A stretch of DNA of 56,519 nucleotides, from NCBI GenBank assembly GCA_018060465.1, contig JAGOVX010000001.1, positions 1 to 56,519 on the forward strand, given 5' to 3'. The position numbers and the translations under genes were made by a program. Within the stretch, counting starts at the first letter, position 1; every line of letters starts with the position of its first letter. Below, one piece after another: positions 3,428 through 56,083 of the stretch. The notes beneath the pieces were generated by a model. It searched no databases, was not told the DNA's origin, and was given only the letters and a program-made list of their open reading frames with translations. The DNA comes from Candidatus Saccharimonadota bacterium (lineage in GTDB: Bacteria > Patescibacteriota > Saccharimonadia > Saccharimonadales > Saccharimonadaceae).

Positions 3428-3928
3428 CTAGAGATCTTGCAGCACAGACTCTTGCGGCAGTGTCGCAAGTATCGTATGGATAGATTGTGTTGGTATGAAC
3501 AATGTAGCCGTGTTTGAAATAGGGTGAAAATCCAAGTCTGGCTCATTTAGAAGTTCCGCATCAACAATTACCTTTACGTGATGTGCTGTTTCATTCAAAC
3601 AGCAAAATATACTGACAGAACCTGGTTTTACACCTAGCATTGTTTCTACTTTTTCGGGGCTGCAAAACCGTACTTTCTTCTCGCCTAAATCGTCTGCTAA
3701 TTTTCGCAGGTCAAGCCGTTTTAGCCCGGGCATCACTACTAAATACTGCCGCCTACCTTTGTCGTCCTGAATAAACAAGTTCTTTATTTCGGTTCGTCCA
3801 GGCAGCACGCGCATCGCCTCCTCTACCGTATATACAGCCTCGTGGCGTACAAGCTCGTAAGGAATTGAAAGCTGTTGCAAAAACCGTATGCAGTCATCCT
3901 CTTTTACATAGTGTGCTTCAGATGTCAT
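3428..3928 (-). CDS. YbaK/ProX-type aminoacyl-tRNA deacylase (free-standing prolyl-tRNA editing domain homologue)
   Basis: 166 aa. The pattern YELVRHEAVYTVEEA...EIKNLFIQDDKGRRQYLVVMPG..RLDLRKLA...GVKPGSVSIF...HP is typical of the YbaK/ProRS-INS superfamily. Confidence 0.7.
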   Translation of the reverse strand: MTSEAHYVKEDDCIRFLQQLSIPYELVRHEAVYTVEEAMRVLPGRTEIKNLFIQDDKGRRQYLVVMPGLKRLDLRKLADDLGEKKVRFCSPEKVETMLGVKPGSVSIFCCLNETAHHVKVIVDAELLNEPDLDFHPISNTATLFIPTQSIHTILATLPQESVLQDL

Positions 3929-3929
3929 C

Positions 3930-4928
3930 CTAGTGAATCTCGCTTATTGCACGAACTATCATGTAGATAATATACACGGCCATGCCTATCCCTACCCCAA
4001 TACTCGTACCTGTTTTTAGTCGCTGACCCAACGGCGCAACTACATTTGCTTCCCTATTACCCACTCGTTCGTCTGCATAATAACTGCCCTGCTCGGCAAT
4101 CTCGCCGCCAACTTTTTTTGCAATATCCATCAAAGCTTTTATATTCTTTTCCTTCACCAACGCGTAGTTTGTTTGTGCGTAAATATAAAATCTGTCATCT
4201 ACTACCTCCATGTCATAGGCACCCTCACTGTCCATGGCGGCCTGCATCACATCTGGCGTAAAAATATACAGGGCATCACGTGCGTATTCTTGAGGTGCAT
4301 ACAAGGTAAAATATTTGTCAAAATCTCCCTCTAGCGATAGTTTTTGTCCGTTCTTAAATTCATCCGGTAAATTTGTCACAACACTGAGAAAATTATTTTT
4401 CTTTGTATCAAGTACCATATTTGGCAAACGACGCGGCAATTTCATCATCAAAAATCCCCATATGTGAATCTGCTGGCTTTTGCCACTTCCTGTCGTGTAG
4501 CGATACTCACCTACTTCTATCCCATCAGAAAACGTAATGCCATGCTGGATTACTCGCGAGTGTCCCTTGTTAAAAATCATACCGGTATGCGGTATGTCTT
4601 TTTGTTTAAACACATAGCGTGCATGATTCATTTCGGCAAATTTATGCAGCTGTACGCGTGCCCTAGTATTCTCTACTATCGCCGAAAGTATAGCTGAAAC
4701 TACTGCCCATCCGATACCGAATACTACCCCAAATTGCACCACTATCCCTGGCATACGCAGTATAGCACCTACAATAGCCGTCACTAGTCCAGCCAATGCA
4801 GCAAGCACAGTTACCCACATGTAGGTTTCAGAAATCGTCATCCACCTGTCACCGGTTAATTTTTTGTAGGCAGCTAGATCAGCCTCAGTTATTTTCGTCG
4901 TGAGCGCGCGATAGTCCACAGCTTTCAT
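3930..4928 (-). CDS. Membrane protein, DUF3137-like (tentative)
   Basis: It has two N-terminal TM helices and one C-terminal TM. The central block LSLEGDFDKYFTLYAPQEYARDALYIFTPDVMQAAMD resembles the DUF3137 core as I recall it. Confidence 0.45.
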   Translation of the reverse strand: MKAVDYRALTTKITEADLAAYKKLTGDRWMTISETYMWVTVLAALAGLVTAIVGAILRMPGIVVQFGVVFGIGWAVVSAILSAIVENTRARVQLHKFAEMNHARYVFKQKDIPHTGMIFNKGHSRVIQHGITFSDGIEVGEYRYTTGSGKSQQIHIWGFLMMKLPRRLPNMVLDTKKNNFLSVVTNLPDEFKNGQKLSLEGDFDKYFTLYAPQEYARDALYIFTPDVMQAAMDSEGAYDMEVVDDRFYIYAQTNYALVKEKNIKALMDIAKKVGGEIAEQGSYYADERVGNREANVVAPLGQRLKTGTSIGVGIGMAVYIIYMIVRAISEIH

Positions 4929-9710: not shown

Positions 9711-10301
9711 CTACACCGGCGTAGGTGCATGTAAATACCGTCGAACCACAAATAGCATCGCACACACATCAGCAGTTAGTATGTAAACCGGAAAAGCAAG
9801 ATGAGTGAAATCCCATACGTCAATGATAAGTAGTGCAGTTACGGCACTAATTGCACCCAAAACGTAAAGAGTAAGCCCTTCTGTTTCTGGATATTTGTAG
9901 GCTTTTATAAGTGTTGGCAAAAATGCCATCCCGTCGGCAAAAACTGAAAAAGCAATTGCAATATTCGCATTCCCGCTCGCTTGCCATGCCACCAAACCAC
10001 CTACTGCTAGGGCGCCGCACAACATATCAAATCTTTTAAGCTTCCACGCAGCTGTCTGCGAGAAAAACGAGCAAGTAAAGATAATTAATGGGTCAATCCC
10101 CACGATCATCGTAAATAAGGACTGATGAAACGGCACATGCTGACTCGCCATCGACGCCGCAGCAATCATGGGTGCAATCGAAAGTATTCCCCATGTCATA
10201 CGGTTTGGCCGTACCGTTCCTCTCACTACTCCGTAGGCATAACTCAAATTGCCCACAAGAAGCAAGATTACGCTTAGATATATCCATCGTTCATCTATCA
10301 T
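9711..10301 (-). CDS. Uncharacterised 6-TM membrane protein, paralogue 3 of 3 (start refined to the internal Met)
   Basis: The track ORF extends to 10361. Alignment with the two paralogues places the start at MIDERWIYLSV... (ATG at 10301). Shared motifs are RGTVRPNRMTWGIL and ADGMAFLPTLIKAYKYPETE. Confidence 0.6.
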   Translation of the reverse strand: MIDERWIYLSVILLLVGNLSYAYGVVRGTVRPNRMTWGILSIAPMIAAASMASQHVPFHQSLFTMIVGIDPLIIFTCSFFSQTAAWKLKRFDMLCGALAVGGLVAWQASGNANIAIAFSVFADGMAFLPTLIKAYKYPETEGLTLYVLGAISAVTALLIIDVWDFTHLAFPVYILTADVCAMLFVVRRYLHAPTPV

Positions 10302-10321
10302 ACGGCATAGTATACTCTGCA

Positions 10322-10339
10322 TTTTTACGTATGTAAAAA
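10322..10339. promoter_or_regulatory. Perfect 7-4-7 palindrome TTTTTAC-GTAT-GTAAAAA in a divergent intergenic region (candidate operator)
   Basis: Read directly. It lies between the refined start of 9711..10301 (-) and the TrmB-like gene at 10382 (+). Confidence 0.4.
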
Positions 10340-10342
10340 AGT

Positions 10343-10360
10343 TGTCTGTACAAACAGACA
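10343..10360. promoter_or_regulatory. Perfect 7-4-7 palindrome TGTCTGT-ACAA-ACAGACA (candidate operator)
   Basis: Read directly. It sits 3 nt from the first palindrome and 21 nt upstream of the TrmB-like ATG. Confidence 0.4.
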
Positions 10361-10381
10361 TTATAGTGATATGCTTCTACT

Positions 10382-11152
10382 ATGAATGTGGAAAAACAAC
10401 AGCAGGAGAAAGTTGTCAGCTATCTCAAACAGTTAGGATTGTCGAGCGAGCAAACTCTGGCATACATTTTCCTTCTGCAGCATGGCCCACAAACCGTTTT
10501 ACAGATTAGCCGCGGACTCAACACCGGTCGCACAAAGCTCTACCCTCTACTCGAAAGTCTTGCTGATAAGCAGCTTATTACTGTACATGAGCGCCACTAT
10601 GGCACCTCGTATGAAGCTCAGAGTCTCGATAGTCTCGATTTTCTTGTCGGCGAGCACGAACGAAAAGCTACCTCACTGCGAAGTAACTTACCGGCCGCGC
10701 AACATGTATTGCAAGCATTAACGCTGCCCTCTCCTTCTGCCACTCGTGTTATAGAATACCGCGGTATCGATGGCCTCAAACAAATGAATTATAATCTTAC
10801 AAAAGCTGAAAAAGAGTTTCGTGTTTTCGAGCTCGCCGGACTCGACAAGCACCTCGGTAAAAGTTTTGCCCATAAAATGCGTCAAAGAGTTATCGAACGT
10901 GGGCTTACCACATATGACCTCACGAACAACCCTGCGCGCACTAGCGAGCCCGGTGCTGAAATGCCCAATGCCAAAATTCGCTACATTGATCCAAGTGTTT
11001 TTACAATTGAATTTGAAGCCTATGTGTACGACAATATTGTCGGCCTTATCCAATATGAATCAGATGATATATTCGGTATAGAAATCCATTCTGAAAAACT
11101 CGCCCGCCAACAACGGACTATTTTTGATATGTTGTGGAAACTAGCGCGATAA
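10382..11152 (+). CDS. TrmB-family winged-helix transcriptional regulator with a C-terminal PLD-like/TrmB_C-like domain
   Basis: The N-terminus LKQLGLSSEQTLAYIFLLQHGPQTVLQISRGLNTGRTKLYPLLESLADKQLI is typical of a TrmB HTH. Confidence 0.7.
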   Translation: MNVEKQQQEKVVSYLKQLGLSSEQTLAYIFLLQHGPQTVLQISRGLNTGRTKLYPLLESLADKQLITVHERHYGTSYEAQSLDSLDFLVGEHERKATSLRSNLPAAQHVLQALTLPSPSATRVIEYRGIDGLKQMNYNLTKAEKEFRVFELAGLDKHLGKSFAHKMRQRVIERGLTTYDLTNNPARTSEPGAEMPNAKIRYIDPSVFTIEFEAYVYDNIVGLIQYESDDIFGIEIHSEKLARQQRTIFDMLWKLAR

Positions 11153-25008: not shown

Positions 25009-26208
25009 CTATGGAATGTAGATATAGGTGTCGTATGCCCAGGCGGGTACACGCATCTCGCTGTAATTACCCCAACCAGGACCACCAGCGTTGTAATAGT
25101 TGTACTGACTGATATTTATTGTATTATCGTCATTAACAGATTCTACCCACACAACATGGCCAAATACACCAGGTGTCACGACGCCAACCGAGTGTGGCTT
25201 TGGCTCGGTACCTGTGCGGTAGCCAGCGTTACGAGCACTGTTTGGCCACATGTTGGCATTTCCCCAGTATCGTGGGAAATTACCAGTACGCTGGCCTACT
25301 TTCCAGCCCGTGTAGCTTACGCACTGACGACAGCCATACCCTATAGGGTCAAAGCCGCTTGAGTAGGCGTTGGCATCTACATAACAGCCGTTATGCCATG
25401 GGTAGCCACCCTTATTTGGGTCGCCTGGCAAGAATGAACCGCCGCCGCCATTGTTGATTGCAGCCTCTATTGCAGCCTGTTGCTGACGCTGTAGCTCTAG
25501 CTGTTGACTGCGAGCTTTCGATGATAAACGCTGGAATGCACTCTCTTGGCCTTGCGTCTGAGCAACTAGCTTGTTCTTTTCAGCTTCTTTTGCTGCCAAG
25601 GCATCGCGTGCCATCTTTTGCTCGGCCAACACTTGGTCTACTGTTTTCTTTTCTTTCTCAAGTCGTGTTTTTAGCTGATTAATACGTGTGATCGTGGTAG
25701 ATAGATTTTGCTGCACGGTAGACTGGTAGGTTTGCTTGTCGAGAAAATCGCCGATATTCCTGCTACTTGCGAGCATCTCTATAGGTGAAATATGCTCGTC
25801 GAGGGCAATATTTACCATCAGCGTTCCCAGTGCTTCCCTATTCTGTGCGATCTCTAGCTCACTTTTTTTAATTTGATTGGCTAGTTTAGCAGCTTTAGCA
25901 GCATAAATGGTAATTTGCGTTTGTATTTGTGACTTTTGATTGTCGAGTTTTGCTAATTCGTTTTGCAATGTCTGACGTTTGCCTGCAAGCTTTGAAGCCT
26001 GGGAGTTGTATTGATTTATCTGCTGTTGCAAGGCGGCAATTTTTTGATCAAATTCGTCCGCTCGAACTGTCTGCGTAATAGCAATTGGCGTTGCAATTAC
26101 CATAAAAACCGAAACAACCACCGAGGCGGCCTTGGTGGCAAATGATGATCGTACCGGTGTGGTGGACATCCGTTTCATCGATTTAGATTTTAGCATAAGC
26201 ATAAACAC
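25009..26208 (-). CDS. PcsB-like coiled-coil + CHAP-domain peptidoglycan hydrolase
   Basis: It has an N-terminal signal/TM, about 230 aa of heptad-rich Q/K/L coiled coil, and a C-terminal CHAP domain (Cys in CRQCVSYTGWKV, His in GHVVWVESV). It lies directly downstream of ftsEX. Confidence 0.8.
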   Translation of the reverse strand: MFMLMLKSKSMKRMSTTPVRSSFATKAASVVVSVFMVIATPIAITQTVRADEFDQKIAALQQQINQYNSQASKLAGKRQTLQNELAKLDNQKSQIQTQITIYAAKAAKLANQIKKSELEIAQNREALGTLMVNIALDEHISPIEMLASSRNIGDFLDKQTYQSTVQQNLSTTITRINQLKTRLEKEKKTVDQVLAEQKMARDALAAKEAEKNKLVAQTQGQESAFQRLSSKARSQQLELQRQQQAAIEAAINNGGGGSFLPGDPNKGGYPWHNGCYVDANAYSSGFDPIGYGCRQCVSYTGWKVGQRTGNFPRYWGNANMWPNSARNAGYRTGTEPKPHSVGVVTPGVFGHVVWVESVNDDNTINISQYNYYNAGGPGWGNYSEMRVPAWAYDTYIYIP

Positions 26209-30893: not shown

Positions 30894-32150
30894 TTACAAT
30901 TCGTTTACCCATGGCTGGGCTGGATGGTTTGCGTCTTTGTCAAACAAACTCTCAGGCACATCAAGCGGCAGTGCTGTGTAGCCACGAGTCAAGGCCATGC
31001 GATAGGCTGCGCGTAGTTCGTCTACTTCACCCACGCATTCAAATGGCTTCATAGCATCGTCAATCCCTAGCAGGCCTTTAAAATCATCCACTAGGTCTGG
31101 GTTGGCTAACAAATCACTGCCAAAAACATCGCGTAGTTCTGCTGGGTCGACAAATGGCGCAAACAACAAATAGCTATTGGCACATTTCGAGCACGTACCG
31201 CACCAGCCAAGAGTTGTGTTGTCGTTGCCCTGCCTATAATTACCAACATTACATGACGAGAAACTTCGGCCATACCTGCCCCATGCGTGCTGTACAAAAA
31301 GTTCTGCAATATGAAGTTCGGTAAACGACCGCAGCGGTGATCCAACGCGCATATCCGTGGCTATATAGCGCCGCACATATTCTGAAAACATCTGCTCGGC
31401 TGGCCACGTTTTTGACCATTGATGGTTAACTGCCATGTCACCCACGTATGCATGTGCTTCGGCACCTTCGTTTCCAATACCAAGGAGCACGGTGTTTTCG
31501 CCATGCAGCACCGCATCGATAATCGCAAAGCTCGTGACGATATATGTTACTGGCACATGGCCATTCAAGCCACCGTTTTCTTTGGCACGCGCTAGTTCAT
31601 CGCGGGCAATGATTCGCTTTACTACCCGCAGCGGTGTTTCAAATGTATCGAGCACACTCGGATGAACATCGGTTGAACTCACATACCACGGTGTAGATGC
31701 CGTGCCTTTTTCGCGCAGCATCGAAGCAAGCAAAAGTGAATCTTTGCCACCACTCTGCAAGCACACTATACCTTCTGCACCTAGCTCCCCTGCACTTTTG
31801 CTTTCACCAGTTGCATCAAAATACACCAGTGTATTCGGATCAAGTTTATTTTCAAATATAAATTGGCTGAGCCCATCGCGGTACACACTGTTTAAAAAGT
31901 TTGCCTGCCACTCATCAACTACAAACGGCAATTCGGCTTTAGCAGCCGGAAAACATTTATAATACGACGTTCCTACCAGCAAAAATGCCAACCGCAAGGC
32001 CGCATCGAACACTACTTGATTCACATCACCAGCCGGTGGCGCAAACGCAAGCCGCTCGGTATATACATAGTCGCGAATTTTGTACGTAAAATACGCTTCG
32101 TGCGTATCAGGCGAATAGCCATATGAATCAAATACAAAAACGTCGTTCAT
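30894..32150 (-). CDS. PP-loop (SGGxDS) ATP pyrophosphatase-superfamily protein; possible MurL-like epimerase (start refined)
   Basis: CLQSGGKDSLL is a PP-loop. A C-terminal Cys cluster is present (SSCNVGNY...WCGTCSKCANSYLL). The track start (32225) overlaps murD by 74 nt. The ATG at 32150 (MNDVFVFDSYGY) lies 1 nt after the murD stop. Confidence 0.6.
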   Translation of the reverse strand: MNDVFVFDSYGYSPDTHEAYFTYKIRDYVYTERLAFAPPAGDVNQVVFDAALRLAFLLVGTSYYKCFPAAKAELPFVVDEWQANFLNSVYRDGLSQFIFENKLDPNTLVYFDATGESKSAGELGAEGIVCLQSGGKDSLLLASMLREKGTASTPWYVSSTDVHPSVLDTFETPLRVVKRIIARDELARAKENGGLNGHVPVTYIVTSFAIIDAVLHGENTVLLGIGNEGAEAHAYVGDMAVNHQWSKTWPAEQMFSEYVRRYIATDMRVGSPLRSFTELHIAELFVQHAWGRYGRSFSSCNVGNYRQGNDNTTLGWCGTCSKCANSYLLFAPFVDPAELRDVFGSDLLANPDLVDDFKGLLGIDDAMKPFECVGEVDELRAAYRMALTRGYTALPLDVPESLFDKDANHPAQPWVNEL

Positions 32151-32151
32151 A

Positions 32152-33441
32152 CTACGATGCTTGTACAATTGCCCTAAATTGCTCACCACGATCGGTAAAG
32201 TTTTTAAACATATCAAAGCTGGCACAGCCAGGACTTAGCAGTACAACATCACCTTCTTTTGCAGCATGTTGCGCCATCAAGACGATAGGCTTCAGTGTTG
32301 TATCGTCACAGATTGTGTAGCGATCAAAATGAACCGCCACAAATGCATCACGTATCTTATCTTTTGTTTGGCCCATTACAAATATATGTTTCACAGTTGC
32401 GTCGGTTGCAACAACGCGTGCCAAATCATCATATTCCACACCTTTATCGAAGCCGCCAACTAGTAAAATCTTTGGGGCGCTAAATGATTTCAGCGCCGCT
32501 TTGGTTGCTCCAACAGCCGATGAATAGCTATCATTAATATAGGTCACGCCGTTTACTTCGCGTACAAACTCAATCCTATGTGGCAAGCCGTGAAAGTCAC
32601 GTAAACCATCTTCAAAACCAGTCGTACTACCAAGAAACGCAAACACCGCAGTCATTGCAGCGCATGCATTCTCGACATTGTGCGGACCAGGCAATTGCAG
32701 CGCATTGACTGCACACACCACCGCGCCATCAAGCACAAAATTGCCGCCATCTTCATGTACACTGCCCGGCTCGTCTACGCTAAAACGAATAACGCGTCCT
32801 TGCGTAGCCGCAGCTGCAACTTCAGCCGATACTTTGTTGTTTGGATGCACTACACATACGTCATTTGCAGTTTGAAATCGGCGAATCATTTTTTTTGCCT
32901 CTACATAGTCACCCATGTCTTGGTGTATGTCCATGTGATCAGGCTCAACCATCAGCACCACTGCTATGTGCGGACTTGTTTCGAGATCCCACAATTGAAA
33001 ACTACTCATTTCAAATACCACCACATGGTCTGACGTAATTTTTGGAAGTTCACCCAAAGCGGGTGTACCTATATTGCCAAGTAAATGTACTGTTTTGCCT
33101 GATGCGCGCAGTATGCTAGAAATTAAACTAGCGGTTGTGCCTTTGCCTTTCGTGCCAGTAACACCGATAATCGGCGCGGGGCATTTTGCAAAAAATTCAT
33201 TCGTTGCGCTCCATATCTTACCATCAGTAACAATTTTTCGCGGTGCTAAACTCGCCGTACGCACCACCATGTCGAACCCTTGCAAATTGCCAAACACATC
33301 GGCACCCGTTAGCACGCGTGCATCCGCCGGAACCTCTACGGGCATCTTTTCATCAACAATCGTCAGTTCGTTGCCGGGAGTATTCCAATATTCAAAACTC
33401 GCCCGTCCTTCTAACCCAAACCCTGCGATCGCAATCTTCAT
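32152..33441 (-). CDS. murD: UDP-N-acetylmuramoyl-L-alanine--glutamate ligase (MurD family; D- versus L-Glu specificity not decidable)
   Basis: N-terminal Rossmann IAIAGFGLEGRA, P-loop GVTGTKGKGTT, C-terminal LLSPGCASFDMFKNFTDRGEQF. Confidence 0.85.
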   Translation of the reverse strand: MKIAIAGFGLEGRASFEYWNTPGNELTIVDEKMPVEVPADARVLTGADVFGNLQGFDMVVRTASLAPRKIVTDGKIWSATNEFFAKCPAPIIGVTGTKGKGTTASLISSILRASGKTVHLLGNIGTPALGELPKITSDHVVVFEMSSFQLWDLETSPHIAVVLMVEPDHMDIHQDMGDYVEAKKMIRRFQTANDVCVVHPNNKVSAEVAAAATQGRVIRFSVDEPGSVHEDGGNFVLDGAVVCAVNALQLPGPHNVENACAAMTAVFAFLGSTTGFEDGLRDFHGLPHRIEFVREVNGVTYINDSYSSAVGATKAALKSFSAPKILLVGGFDKGVEYDDLARVVATDATVKHIFVMGQTKDKIRDAFVAVHFDRYTICDDTTLKPIVLMAQHAAKEGDVVLLSPGCASFDMFKNFTDRGEQFRAIVQAS

Positions 33442-52513: not shown

Positions 52514-52996
52514 TCAATACGGCACGATATCATGTACGTCCTCAAATGGACTTTTAGGTAGCGGGCCTGTCTTGTCTTCATCAAAATAATTTACTCTTTT
52601 TAGACCCGCTACCCATTCTAAACATGCTATATTCTGGCCCGATCCAACTGCGCCGCCAATCTCTTCGACACCCAGGCGCAGAGCATACCCAGGTGTGTTT
52701 CGATCGACTACCTGGCCTCTCACAACAGTACCATCATCGTGTACATCTGAAATAACAGCTTGATCTAGTGTCATGTGAACCCGTATTCTTTGGCCATCTG
52801 GGTGTATCCCCTCCAAAACTAGCAGATGCGCTGTCTCTTGATTCAAGTACCGATTTGTAGTACCTTCAAAATCAATTATAGTGCCAGGCTTGTCAACAAC
52901 GATAGCTACTGTGCCGTCCGAAAACTCTACTTGCCTTGTAGGCATCCGTTCATCTTCATGATTAGTATGTGGTGCTATATGATCGTGATGTGTCAT
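52514..52996 (-). CDS. Hypothetical protein (160 aa, His-rich N-terminus)
   Basis: An ORF with AAGAGGT SD about 10 nt upstream. I recognised no family. It lacks the amino-acid-kinase motifs, so it is not PyrH. Confidence 0.45.
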   Translation of the reverse strand: MTHHDHIAPHTNHEDERMPTRQVEFSDGTVAIVVDKPGTIIDFEGTTNRYLNQETAHLLVLEGIHPDGQRIRVHMTLDQAVISDVHDDGTVVRGQVVDRNTPGYALRLGVEEIGGAVGSGQNIACLEWVAGLKRVNYFDEDKTGPLPKSPFEDVHDIVPY

Positions 52997-54244: not shown

Positions 54245-54273
54245 TTTACACCGGTAGCAAACTCGGGTACTAT
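54245..54273 (+). promoter_or_regulatory. Sigma-70-type promoter TTTACA-17 nt-TACTAT for the 54294-56050 unit
   Basis: The hexamers are at 54245..54250 and 54268..54273. Confidence 0.5.
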
Positions 54274-54293
54274 GAAAATGCTTACCTTTATAT

Positions 54294-55397
54294 ATGAAAA
54301 CTATTCTTTACTCCATTGCAACTAAGTATCGGCTCCACGCAGCAGTGCTTTTTATTGGTGGCTGGCTGGCGCTTGCATCAACCACAGCGTACGCAAAATG
54401 CGGCAACGTTTCTACGAGTATCATAAATTGCAGCAATCAAGATAACGGCATATGGGGACTACTTCAGATGGGTATCAATCTTTTGGGTGCAGGTGTAGGT
54501 GTAGCTGCCTTGGGTGGCTTGGTCTACGGTGCAATCCTGTATGCAAGTGCCGAAGACAAAGCCCAGCAAATTGAACAAGCAAAAGGTGTAATCACCAATG
54601 TAGTGATCGGACTCATCTTGTTTGGGTCGATGGCCGCTTTGTTGCAATTTATTATTCCCGGAGGTGTATTTGGCCGTGAGTACAAGATTCCAAAGGCCGA
54701 TGCCAACCCTGGCAAATCGCATATTGTCTCAACAAAAGATAGCACTAAAGGAAGTAGTGATAGTGGTGATGGCGGCGATGGCGGTAGTGGTGATGGCGGA
54801 AGTAGCAGCTCTGAGTCTATCAGCAGCATATCTGTAAAAAATTCGCGTGATGCGGGCGCTCTCACGGGTGCACTAAAAACTGGCACACTGTACCGCACCG
54901 CTGCCCTGACCTCTCTTAGCGATAGCGACAAAAAAACCTTATCGTCGCTACTTAGCCCAAATGGCACCATTATTGACCTACGCATACTGAATGCCGCCAA
55001 AGACGACAGTATAAGTGGTGCAGAAAATGTACGGATACCTATAGGTGGAGTGCTCGATCTAAAGCCAATGGTCTCTGATGCTACTCACGCGTCGCAAACA
55101 GTCAAAGCGCTAAAAACAGCCGCCAATGCCGATGGCCCAGTACTTATTCACTGTGCTGCCGGCAAAGATCGCACCGGATGGCTGGTTGCAATGATTATGA
55201 CAATTGCAGGCGCCAACGACCAACAGGTCATGGATGAATACTTGAAAAGCAATGATGCTAATCACGTAGAAAAAGCGTGGCTGAACAGTGGGCTTTCTGA
55301 AGCTCGCAGTAAATATGGCGGCGTCCTACCTTACTTAAAACATTTTGGCCTCACGGCAAGCGATATCAATAAACTTCGTACTAAATTCAAGGCCTAG
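54294..55397 (+). CDS. Fusion protein: N-terminal TrbC/VirB2-type (T4SS pilin-like) membrane domain + Gly/Asp/Ser linker + CX5R protein tyrosine phosphatase (Y_phosphatase3-like)
   Basis: Signal/TM with AYA, a Cys pair (KCGNVSTSIINC), and two TM around AEDKAQQIEQAKG, as in Gram-positive/CPR VirB2-like pilins. The linker is SSDSGDGGDGGSGDGGSSSS. The phosphatase part reads NSRDAG...GTLYRTAAL...TIIDLR and VLIHCAAGKDRTGW (Cys codon 55152..55154). Confidence 0.65.
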   Translation: MKTILYSIATKYRLHAAVLFIGGWLALASTTAYAKCGNVSTSIINCSNQDNGIWGLLQMGINLLGAGVGVAALGGLVYGAILYASAEDKAQQIEQAKGVITNVVIGLILFGSMAALLQFIIPGGVFGREYKIPKADANPGKSHIVSTKDSTKGSSDSGDGGDGGSGDGGSSSSESISSISVKNSRDAGALTGALKTGTLYRTAALTSLSDSDKKTLSSLLSPNGTIIDLRILNAAKDDSISGAENVRIPIGGVLDLKPMVSDATHASQTVKALKTAANADGPVLIHCAAGKDRTGWLVAMIMTIAGANDQQVMDEYLKSNDANHVEKAWLNSGLSEARSKYGGVLPYLKHFGLTASDINKLRTKFKA

Positions 55398-55399
55398 CG

Positions 55400-56050
55400 A
55401 TGCAACCAACCAACACAGCACCCGATGAAAATAACCCGCCAACCAATGACCCATCTGCGAAAGATTGGTTCAATGCCATCGAGCCCACTGTTCCTATAGA
55501 AGCCGTAATGCCCTCGAAAAAGCCGCATCGTAAGGCACTACTACTGACCATCATAGTCGTCATAGGGCTGCTGGTCGCGGTAACCGCTGCCTATGTAGTC
55601 GCACAACCCAGGCAACTCGCCTGTCTTGAAACGAGTGACTACAGTGATCTTACCGGTACTACGCAAAGCGACCCTATTATGTCTACTGTCAATTTTTACA
55701 CCCGCACAGTACGTTTCTCAGAAAATAGCTCAAGCCAACTCCTGCCTTCAGCCCAGGCTGAAACAACGGCATTTATACGTAAACTTGCCACCTTTTACAA
55801 ACAACACAGCCGCGCATCTATTGTAATAACTCTTGTCAGCAACTATACCGACACGCAAATGAACCCTATTGCAACTGCGCGCATCAACACACTGCGGCAA
55901 GATCTTGTCAGCGCTGGCATCCCCAACAGTGCAATTGTGACACAAAAGCCATTGCACGTGCAGTCAGAGGCAGATTCCCCTGTTACCGATGATGGTCAGG
56001 TATTTCTCACTGTTAGCTCTAGCCAAGGCTGCCGCGTAACGAGCCTATAA
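55400..56050 (+). CDS. Membrane-anchored protein with a degenerate OmpA/MotB C-terminal-like domain (tentative)
   Basis: Single TM (ALLLTIIVVIGLLVAVTAAYVV). VRFSENSSQLLPSAQ...IVITLVSNYTDTQMNPIATARINTLRQDLVSAGIPNSAI loosely follows the OmpA_C pattern. The start lies 2 nt after the upstream stop. Confidence 0.35.
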   Translation: MQPTNTAPDENNPPTNDPSAKDWFNAIEPTVPIEAVMPSKKPHRKALLLTIIVVIGLLVAVTAAYVVAQPRQLACLETSDYSDLTGTTQSDPIMSTVNFYTRTVRFSENSSSQLLPSAQAETTAFIRKLATFYKQHSRASIVITLVSNYTDTQMNPIATARINTLRQDLVSAGIPNSAIVTQKPLHVQSEADSPVTDDGQVFLTVSSSQGCRVTSL

Positions 56051-56083
56051 AAATAGTCCGCAGTGTACGCGGACTATTTTTTG
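56049..56083. terminator. Bidirectional intrinsic terminator: 13-bp stem AAAAATAGTCCGC / GCGGACTATTTTT, 7-nt loop, T-run
   Basis: Paired by hand. It lies between the convergent genes 55400..56050 (+) and tsf (-), with an A-run on one side and a T-run on the other. Confidence 0.75.

Follow-up and report, generated by a model that had tools for sequence, protein, structure and literature searches.

A conserved Saccharimonadia gene pair predicted to tether an ALP-type phosphatase to the cell surface through a VirB2-like pilin hairpin

Introduction

The 'atypical lipid phosphatases' (ALPs), among them MptpB (Rv0153c) of Mycobacterium tuberculosis, Lmo1800 (LipA), and LM1, are diagnosed by the P-loop signature HCXXGKDR[TA]G (PMC3091653). 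In MptpB, Lmo1800, and LM1, the P-loop Asp is catalytic and the Lys is needed for phosphoinositide binding or activity. As the P-loop of these enzymes contains just two basic residues, they favor mono-phosphorylated inositol lipids (PMC3091653). The described ALPs consist of the phosphatase only and carry neither an anchor nor a lipid-binding module (PMC3091653). In contrast, the phosphatase considered here is joined through a long linker to a pilin-like membrane hairpin. It is encoded by the first gene of a pair on contig JAGOVX010000001.1 of a Candidatus Saccharimonadota bacterium, within a stretch of 56,519 nucleotides (the window). The pair comprises open reading frame 1 (ORF1; 54294..55397, + strand, 367 aa), the pilin-module/phosphatase fusion, and ORF2 (55400..56050, + strand, 216 aa), a single-pass membrane protein with a predicted OmpA_C-like ectodomain. 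We consider it fairly probable that the two genes form a conserved Saccharimonadia operon that places an ALP phosphatase, tethered by the pilin hairpin, on the outer face of the membrane together with an OmpA-like partner on the wall side.

The second group of relevant systems consists of the VirB2-like pilins of patescibacterial type IV secretion systems (T4SSs), which are encoded in arrays (SEML1_0014-0019; PF18895) in Southlakia epibionticum. The T4SS and its VirB2-like pilins are essential in this organism, the only Saccharibacterium open to genetics, and their role is described as 'completely unknown' (PMC10633639; PMC11665869). The literature on patescibacterial VirB2-like pilins describes the arrays and mentions no enzyme fusions (including PMC12857230 and PMC10633639). 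The first-pass annotation of the window, made by a model from the sequence alone, knew of no described fusion of a pilin to a tyrosine phosphatase, and full-text literature searches likewise found no paper describing one. If the pilin character of the module holds, ORF1 would be, as far as the literature shows, the first T4SS-type pilin with natural enzymatic cargo, and the ALP phosphatases, so far described without an anchor, would gain a built-in membrane anchor. Should the hairpin serve only as an anchor, the protein would still represent a new surface-enzyme architecture. In either case, a truncated public gene call is corrected.

A further context is nutritional. According to a review (among PMC11665869 and PMC10633639), no route of lipid uptake or breakdown has been identified in Patescibacteria. 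A conserved family in which a copy of the leading pilin bears enzymes that hydrolyse phosphoesters and lipids would link this question to that of the T4SS role, and may provide a lead on how host-dependent bacteria work on the surface of their hosts.

The phosphatase domain of ORF1

The C-terminal part of ORF1 is an MptpB/ALP-type Cys phosphatase domain (aa 176-367; 54819..55394, + strand). Pfam Y_phosphatase3 (PF13350) matches aa 180-365 with an E-value of 5.9e-33 and 115.2 bits, compared with a cut-off of 22.2 bits. Searched against the PDB, a profile of 24 homologues finds 8DHI, the PTP of C. difficile, with an E-value of 1.7e-27 and 1YWF, the PtpB of M. tuberculosis, with 9.8e-24. The same structures return as the best folds for the ORF1 model in Foldseek (1ywf with E 2e-11, 2oz5, and 8dhi), with target-normalised TM-scores of 0.54-0.62. 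AlphaFold2 gives block-mean predicted local distance difference test (pLDDT) values of 80-98 over aa 171-367, mostly >90. The complete Y_phosphatase3-like domain with the loop HCAAGKDRTG that had been read from the sequence is thus borne out by Pfam, Foldseek, and the PDB profile together.

The catalytic P-loop (HCAAGKDRTG, H286 to G295; 55149..55178, + strand) equals the ALP signature. H286, C287, G290, K291, D292, R293, T294, G295, and W296 are invariant in the 24 homologues, and the sole Cys of the phosphatase domain is the catalytic one. Judged by these residues, the loop is catalytically intact. In addition to the P-loop, ORF1 shares the NxRD, LYRS, DLR, and EYLxSN blocks with MptpB and the other ALPs. 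MptpB differs in having two mycobacterial insertions. The ORF1 domain appears to lack insertions 1 and 2, since the gaps in the alignment with MptpB fall there. MptpB is also exported and acts outside its producer, although the producers of MptpB-type enzymes are intracellular pathogens, whereas the producer of ORF1 belongs to a lineage of bacterial epibionts. Public annotation lists the ORF1 family as 'tyrosine-protein phosphatase' or 'hypothetical'.

By ALP precedent, it may be speculated that the substrates are mono-phosphoinositides or phosphoproteins. Among bacteria, inositol lipids are mostly actinobacterial and are made through a phosphatidylinositol phosphate (PIP) intermediate (PMC9246714), and cultured Saccharibacteria grow on Actinobacteria (PMC12857230).

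The closest relatives of the domain outside the patescibacteria are genes of Propionibacteriaceae and other Actinomycetes, with 38-44% identity. Five of these relatives (L031, L036, L037, L047, and L054, at ~3700-4576 in each) encode proteins of 286-288 aa on long Propionibacteriaceae or Actinomycetes contigs and are 41-44% identical over aa 175-365. Actinomycetes is the phylum of the known Saccharibacteria hosts, and genes may have passed between host and epibiont. The scan was pattern-based, which may have skewed this impression.

The N-terminal pilin module and linker

ORF1 begins with a Sec-type signal peptide (aa 1-34; 54294..54395, + strand), composed of a basic n-region, a hydrophobic h-region, and an A-x-A motif (AYA|K). 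Across the 24 aligned homologues, the n-region carries a net charge of +2.3 and the AxA motif precedes a conserved Cys. AlphaFold2 places a helix at aa 2-26 in this region. The signal peptide is followed by a VirB2-like pilin module (aa 35-126; 54396..54671, + strand), in which Cys36-x9-Cys46 leads into two helices (helix 1 at ~53-85 and helix 2 at ~99-125) separated by a K-rich loop (86-98). The motif C36-x4-T41-x4-C46 is invariant in the homologues, the inter-helix loop averages 2.7 Lys and Arg residues, and the module closes with an invariant PGG at 122-124. In the AlphaFold2 model, the hairpin helices span 52-85 and 90-120, with block-mean pLDDT values of 67-91, mostly ~90. Thus, the signal peptide, Cys pair, and two-helix transmembrane (TM) hairpin that the first-pass annotation had placed in aa 1-125 are all present, and the signal-peptide features, the Cys pair, and both hydrophobic helices are conserved in all 24 homologues. 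The module follows the pilin plan in having a signal peptide and then two hydrophobic helices with a short charged loop. It departs from that plan beyond helix 2, where a pilin would end as a small protein and ORF1 continues for ~240 residues past the PGG.

These residues start with an acidic linker rich in Gly, Ser, and Asp (aa 127-175; 54672..54818, + strand), which is disordered and variable in length. The linker reported earlier is found in ORF1 as GSSDSGDGGDGGSGDGGSSSSE, and AlphaFold2 assigns pLDDT values <50 to aa 127-171, as expected of a disordered segment.

In the public annotation, the protein (P0001, 309 aa) starts only at Met59 and thus lacks its signal peptide and Cys pair as well as a portion of helix 1 (54294-54467). 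The longer start at 54294 is backed by the homologue alignment: the invariant C36, T41, and C46 precede Met59 in the homologues, and the Met59 call is therefore wrong. A lipoprotein reading of the conserved Cys was considered and rejected, as K, T, or E stands directly before it in many orthologues.

Conservation, synteny, and other cargo enzymes

The full ORF1 architecture occurs in ~40 protein clusters (90% identity clustering) that are 35-54% identical, and all named clusters belong to Saccharimonadales or Saccharibacteria. The lineage of the unit, Saccharimonadia, matches these named homologues. The order frr-(recF)-[fusion]-[ORF2]-tsf-rpsB is kept wherever a locus includes both flanks. 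The pair is thus a conserved core operon rather than a singleton, and its conservation in sequence and position across diverged genomes is far above chance. In the terms of the first-pass annotation, which had allowed that the architecture might turn out to be common and already characterised, the first part holds, with ~40 syntenic clusters, and the second does not, no describing paper having been found. As far as sampled, the fusion family is clade-restricted and environmental, and it appears to be missing from cultured oral strains.

The module is not confined to phosphatases. A profile of it searched against 1.84 billion representatives retrieves 17,379 proteins with E-values <= 1e-3, of which 200 reach <= 1e-30. 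Among 31 proteins with long C-terminal extensions, chosen from the best 150, there are 15 with Y_phosphatase3, 6 with Exo_endo_phos (EEP), 5 with GDPD, and 2 with GDSL lipase domains, and combined forms occur as pilin-EEP-phosphatase and pilin-GDSL-phosphatase. For one such protein (P0041), comparing its EEP domain with PDB sequences gave nothing useful for deciding between a nuclease and a lipid phosphatase.

Variants are also seen within the tsf-flanked slot itself, with a pilin-GDPD fusion in L046 (3791-5092), a pilin-EEP-phosphatase fusion in L088 (7998-9875), and a 716-aa phosphatase protein lacking both the pilin module and ORF2 in L020 (2441-4591). L089 (414-2240) encodes a 608-aa pilin-phosphatase variant followed by ORF2. 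A 1520-aa Microsaccharimonas protein (L015, 74-4636) combines an EEP domain (aa 1013-1282) with the same phosphatase at its C-terminus (aa 1307-1509); it has no pilin module, and ~1000 residues without an assigned family precede its EEP domain. GDSL-lipase genes lie directly after the ORF2 orthologue in L002 (9868-10518) and ~2 kb past the pilin array in L087 (13674-15275), echoing the GDSL domains fused to the pilin module.

ORF2, a probable OmpA-like partner

ORF2 starts 2 nt after the ORF1 stop, as had been noted for the two reading frames. Its product has a disordered N-terminal tail, predicted to be cytoplasmic, with a conserved WF(N) motif, a TM helix at aa 44-67, and an OmpA_C-like ectodomain at ~aa 95-210. 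Sequence searches alone reveal little of this relationship. ORF2 has no match in Pfam or NCBIfam, including PF00691, a word-indexed search returns only the protein itself, and a profile search returns 3 proteins. Orthologues were therefore gathered by their position in fusion loci, and 12 were aligned, of which one matches PF00691 (E 3.5e-5). The family invariants are C75, F99, R161, L169, G173, I179, and C211, in addition to the WF motif of the N-terminal tail.

The fold is predicted by structure. AlphaFold2 models aa 101-190 with block-mean pLDDT values of 81-96, and the top 50 PDB matches of the domain in Foldseek are all of the OmpA_C-like/MotB/Pal type (PA0833, OprF, MotB, Pal, and YfiB), with a best E-value of 2.9e-7. 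An ORF2 profile run against the PDB gives five weak matches, all OmpA-like (including Pal, YiaD, and MotY). The single TM helix and degenerate OmpA_C-like domain proposed from the sequence therefore stand as a modelled fold and helix, with no Pfam match behind the domain name. ORF2 shares this predicted fold with OmpA_C-like single-pass proteins (MotB, YiaD, and Pal-type), and its invariant R161 aligns with the Arg of the OmpA/Pal RA motif. It differs from them in the TD...N...L part of the motif, which is not conserved, and in a Cys pair that brackets the domain. The order of a cytoplasmic tail, one TM helix, and an OmpA-like domain is also that of MotB. However, the TM helix of ORF2 contains no Asp, and ORF2 is therefore not a stator.

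An ORF2 orthologue stands behind every fusion of the N-terminal module to the phosphatase that was found, on 21 distinct contigs. In the 12 loci measured, its start ranges from an 11-nt overlap with the fusion to 9 nt beyond it. It also follows the fusions to other enzymes in two of the three loci checked, namely pilin-GDPD (L046) and pilin-EEP-phosphatase (L088); no orthologue follows the pilin fusion with an unassigned C-terminal domain in L028. Among the fetched loci, ORF2 is never found beside pilin arrays or stand-alone phosphatases. ORF2 remains one family across different enzymes, which speaks for a role as partner of the locus or of the pilin module and makes an immunity protein less likely. 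In L088, two tandem ORF2 paralogues (9877-10455 and 10463-11029; 192 and 188 aa) follow the fusion.

A proposed arrangement at the cell surface

In the arrangement that we consider fairly probable, ORF1 would be exported by the Sec pathway and its signal peptide cut after the A-x-A motif. The VirB2-like hairpin, paralogous to the leading array pilin, would then insert into the membrane with both of its ends outside, and the flexible acidic linker of ~45 residues would keep the phosphatase at the cell surface or within the wall zone. There, the enzyme would hydrolyse phosphomonoesters, for which the family precedent is mono-phosphorylated inositol lipids or phosphoproteins. ORF2, probably translationally coupled to ORF1 through the 2-nt gap, would present its OmpA-like domain outside the cytoplasm and most likely tie or position the fusion at the cell wall.

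Several points count against this arrangement. The match of the window protein to PF18895 (T4SS_pilin) at aa 63-120 (E 5.3e-5) reaches 23.7 bits and stays below the threshold of 26.6 bits. The expectation that a profile would recognize a pilin domain is thus borne out by a real match below the cut-off and by homology to the pilins of T4SS loci; relatives with the same module pass the threshold (P0041 with 34.0 bits and L086 with 43.4 bits). The ORF1 unit lies outside any T4SS cluster, with frr, recF, tsf, and rpsB as its neighbours, and no T4SS part is found among the ten largest ORFs of the window. Southlakia epibionticum ML1 has no PF13350 protein in its tables, and therefore no transposon sequencing (Tn-seq) or other genetic evidence from ML1 applies to the unit; the tsf-frr slot of ML1 holds just one non-essential hypothetical gene. 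In addition, an exported Cys phosphatase has to keep its catalytic Cys reduced. As for the partner, the ORF2 model was built on an alignment of only 3 sequences, and the position of the peptidoglycan-binding Asp, as read from the alignment by eye, is D in just ~6 of the 12 orthologues, the window protein having N there. Although R161 is invariant, this half-conserved Asp of the binding pair leaves peptidoglycan binding by ORF2 at the level of plausible.

Relationship to T4SS pilin arrays

A hidden Markov model (HMM) of the ORF1 N-module was scanned over all fetched loci. It recognizes the first gene of 5-7-gene PF18895 arrays at E-values of 1e-36 to 1e-50, compared with 1e-5 to 1e-16 for the other array members. 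On this profile evidence, the module is specifically pilin-1-like. It is 45-64% identical to the first pilin and shares with the array pilins the signal peptide, the C-x9-C motif, the hairpin, and the PGG end. ORF1 differs from the array pilins in being encoded outside the T4SS locus, in its enzymatic C-terminal extension of ~240 aa, and in being paired with an OmpA-like gene, which the arrays lack.

One such array, in L087, directly adjoins TrbL_3/VirB6, PrgI/VirB3, TraC-like, and VirB4-type genes and is followed by hsp20, and this layout is that of the published essential T4SS locus of S. epibionticum (PMC10633639). In UBA2952, a genome with the fusion, the array likewise has a VirB6-like neighbour, with a BLASTP E-value of 1e-61 to the TrbL_3-annotated protein of L087. 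Pfam assigns no family to the 1114- and 1132-aa proteins beside pilin arrays, and their likeness to VirB6 comes from BLASTP. The arrays (starting at ~3900-4000 in L025-L087 and at ~3000 in L090-L149) have a fixed order of proteins of ~130-300, 145, 95, 125, 130, and 140 aa. A Cys-rich N-terminal extension, of up to 619 aa in L086, is frequent on the first pilin. Some genomes encode pilins two and three together as a single fused ORF of 230-270 aa.

These ties raise the possibility, which we regard as doubtful yet deserving attention, that the fusion works as an enzyme-bearing pilin. It would either co-assemble into a T4SS pilus or be cleaved at the pilin C-terminus, and the phosphatase would be displayed along the filament or delivered to the surface of the host cell. 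This possibility gives specific form to the contact-dependent host effector suggested in the first-pass annotation. In F and T pili, both termini of the pilin face outward, and RP4 TrbC is trimmed at the pilin C-terminus. The pilin-1-like character of the module favors this possibility, as does the end of the stand-alone pilin-1 proteins at PGGVF(S/N), precisely where the linker of the fusion starts. The essential nature of the T4SS and its pilins in S. epibionticum points in the same direction (PMC10633639; PMC11665869). However, the gene occupies a housekeeping slot instead of a T4SS locus, the literature on patescibacterial VirB2-like proteins demonstrates no pilus, and a domain of ~200 aa on a subunit is a steric load.

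A comparison within genomes bears on the same question. Five genomes with both a fusion and an array were compared over ~95 aligned residues; a metagenome scan recovered no pilin array from the window organism. In three of the five, the core of the fusion is closest to the pilin-1 of its own genome (rank 1 of 51, with 72-73% identity against a median of 51-54%), which suggests that the two are kept compatible, and in L008 and L014 this identity exceeds that to the best orthologous fusion (61-63%). The preference is absent in the other two genomes, where the own pilin-1 ranks 4 and 16. Since such a preference is unexpected under an old duplication followed by independent evolution, it fits either selection for compatibility or an old exchange of modules. 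The pairing is thus a hint, drawn from sequence comparison, that the fusion is coupled to the T4SS pilin by co-assembly or by an old module exchange. The two exceptions, the short alignment, and the lack of a conversion tract count against reading co-assembly into it. We rejected a recent conversion event between pilin-1 and the fusion, as the nucleotide identity is ~70% over ~230 nt, the same as between orthologues.

A broader proposal, which we hold to be unlikely, extends the enzyme-bearing pilin to the whole set of fusions. Saccharibacteria would use the leading T4SS pilin as a carrier of swappable ALP, EEP, GDPD, and GDSL enzymes, which would be co-assembled and act on the envelope of the actinobacterial host. 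Candidate targets would be inositol phospholipids and PIP, glycerophosphodiesters, or teichoic-acid-like polymers. ORF2 would be a wall-anchored dock, and the activity would feed lipid and phosphate scavenging.

Membrane sidedness and the remaining alternatives

The first-pass annotation had also placed the phosphatase outside the cytoplasm. We infer this position on sound grounds: the signal peptide is of the cleavable type, and the membrane helices behind it are even in number, hydropathy detecting only two TM-grade segments there. The main argument for an extracytoplasmic phosphatase comes from the sister pilins, in which signal-peptide-led, Cys-rich N-terminal ectodomains sit on the same hairpin. 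Since these ectodomains must be exported and two helices follow, a C-terminal extension would emerge on the exported side as well. The charge pattern, the features of the signal peptide, and the invariant Cys pair directly behind it fit an outside C-terminus. The segment after the signal peptide is acidic (net -2.5), as is the linker (net -3.5 family-wide), and Lys and Arg are concentrated in the inter-helix loop.

The opposite orientation would make ORF1 a regulatory phosphatase facing the cytoplasm, in which the hydrophobic segments only anchor the protein and the enzyme acts on the cell's own phosphoproteins, like the phosphatase partner of a kinase in envelope synthesis. Cytoplasmic regulation is a common role of bacterial Cys phosphatases, and the window protein has three or four K/R residues after helix 2. 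Nevertheless, we regard this orientation as very unlikely, given that the signal peptide is of the classical kind, with an AxA motif and a moderate hydrophobicity below the TM cut-off of 1.6. The exported Cys pair is invariant, the number of helices after the signal peptide is even, and the linker is acidic and of the Gly/Ser type. Furthermore, the sister fusions bear typical exo-enzymes, and no kinase is found nearby.

A further explanation that we also regard as very unlikely is a polymorphic toxin system with a constant N-terminal trafficking module, swappable PTP, EEP, GDPD, or GDSL toxins, and ORF2 as the immunity protein: the variable enzymes on a constant module, the small gene directly downstream, and weak matches of ORF1 to PF22785 ('polymorphic toxin system DSP-PTPase') recall such systems, but the PF22785 scores are below threshold, one ORF2 family serves PTP, EEP-PTP, and GDPD fusions where immunity genes should co-vary, a membrane protein with an OmpA-like ectodomain is atypical for an inhibitor, and the locus is a single-copy, syntenic slot of the core genome.

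Transcriptional context of the locus

The first-pass annotation described the two genes as a self-contained unit driven by its own promoter and closed by a strong bidirectional terminator. A hairpin between the convergent ORF2 and tsf genes (56049..56081, no strand assigned) has a 13-bp stem and a 7-nt loop, with a run of A5 on its 5' side and T6 on its 3' side, in the manner of a bidirectional terminator. It folds with -20.5 kcal/mol (z = -5.0), and 0 of 200 shuffles are as stable. A terminator pattern scan had overlooked this hairpin because the A and T runs lengthen the stem, and it was found by folding. On the 5' side, the sigma-70-like hexamer pair TTTACA-17-TACTAT (54245..54273, + strand) is indeed located 5' of ORF1 and agrees with the consensus at 9 of 12 positions in the pattern scan. 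However, 4 such sites were seen compared with 3.8 expected in shuffles, which is the chance rate, and the pair of hexamers is thus no evidence of a separate promoter for ORF1. The recF gene lies 56 nt 5' of ORF1 and also on the + strand, with no terminator in between, and transcription may read through from recF into ORF1. The unit is therefore not demonstrably self-contained.

Other features of the window

A scan of the window (1-56519) found no tRNA gene and no Rfam family. Between frr and recF lies a 160-aa ORF without a family (52514-52996, - strand). A 443-aa ORF with no Pfam family (30894-32225, - strand) overlaps the upstream Mur-ligase ORF by 74 nt as listed, and a 399-aa protein (25009-26208, - strand) ends in a C-terminal CHAP domain of the peptidoglycan hydrolase type. 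Nearly all genes of the window are on the minus strand, and the GC skew is negative throughout.

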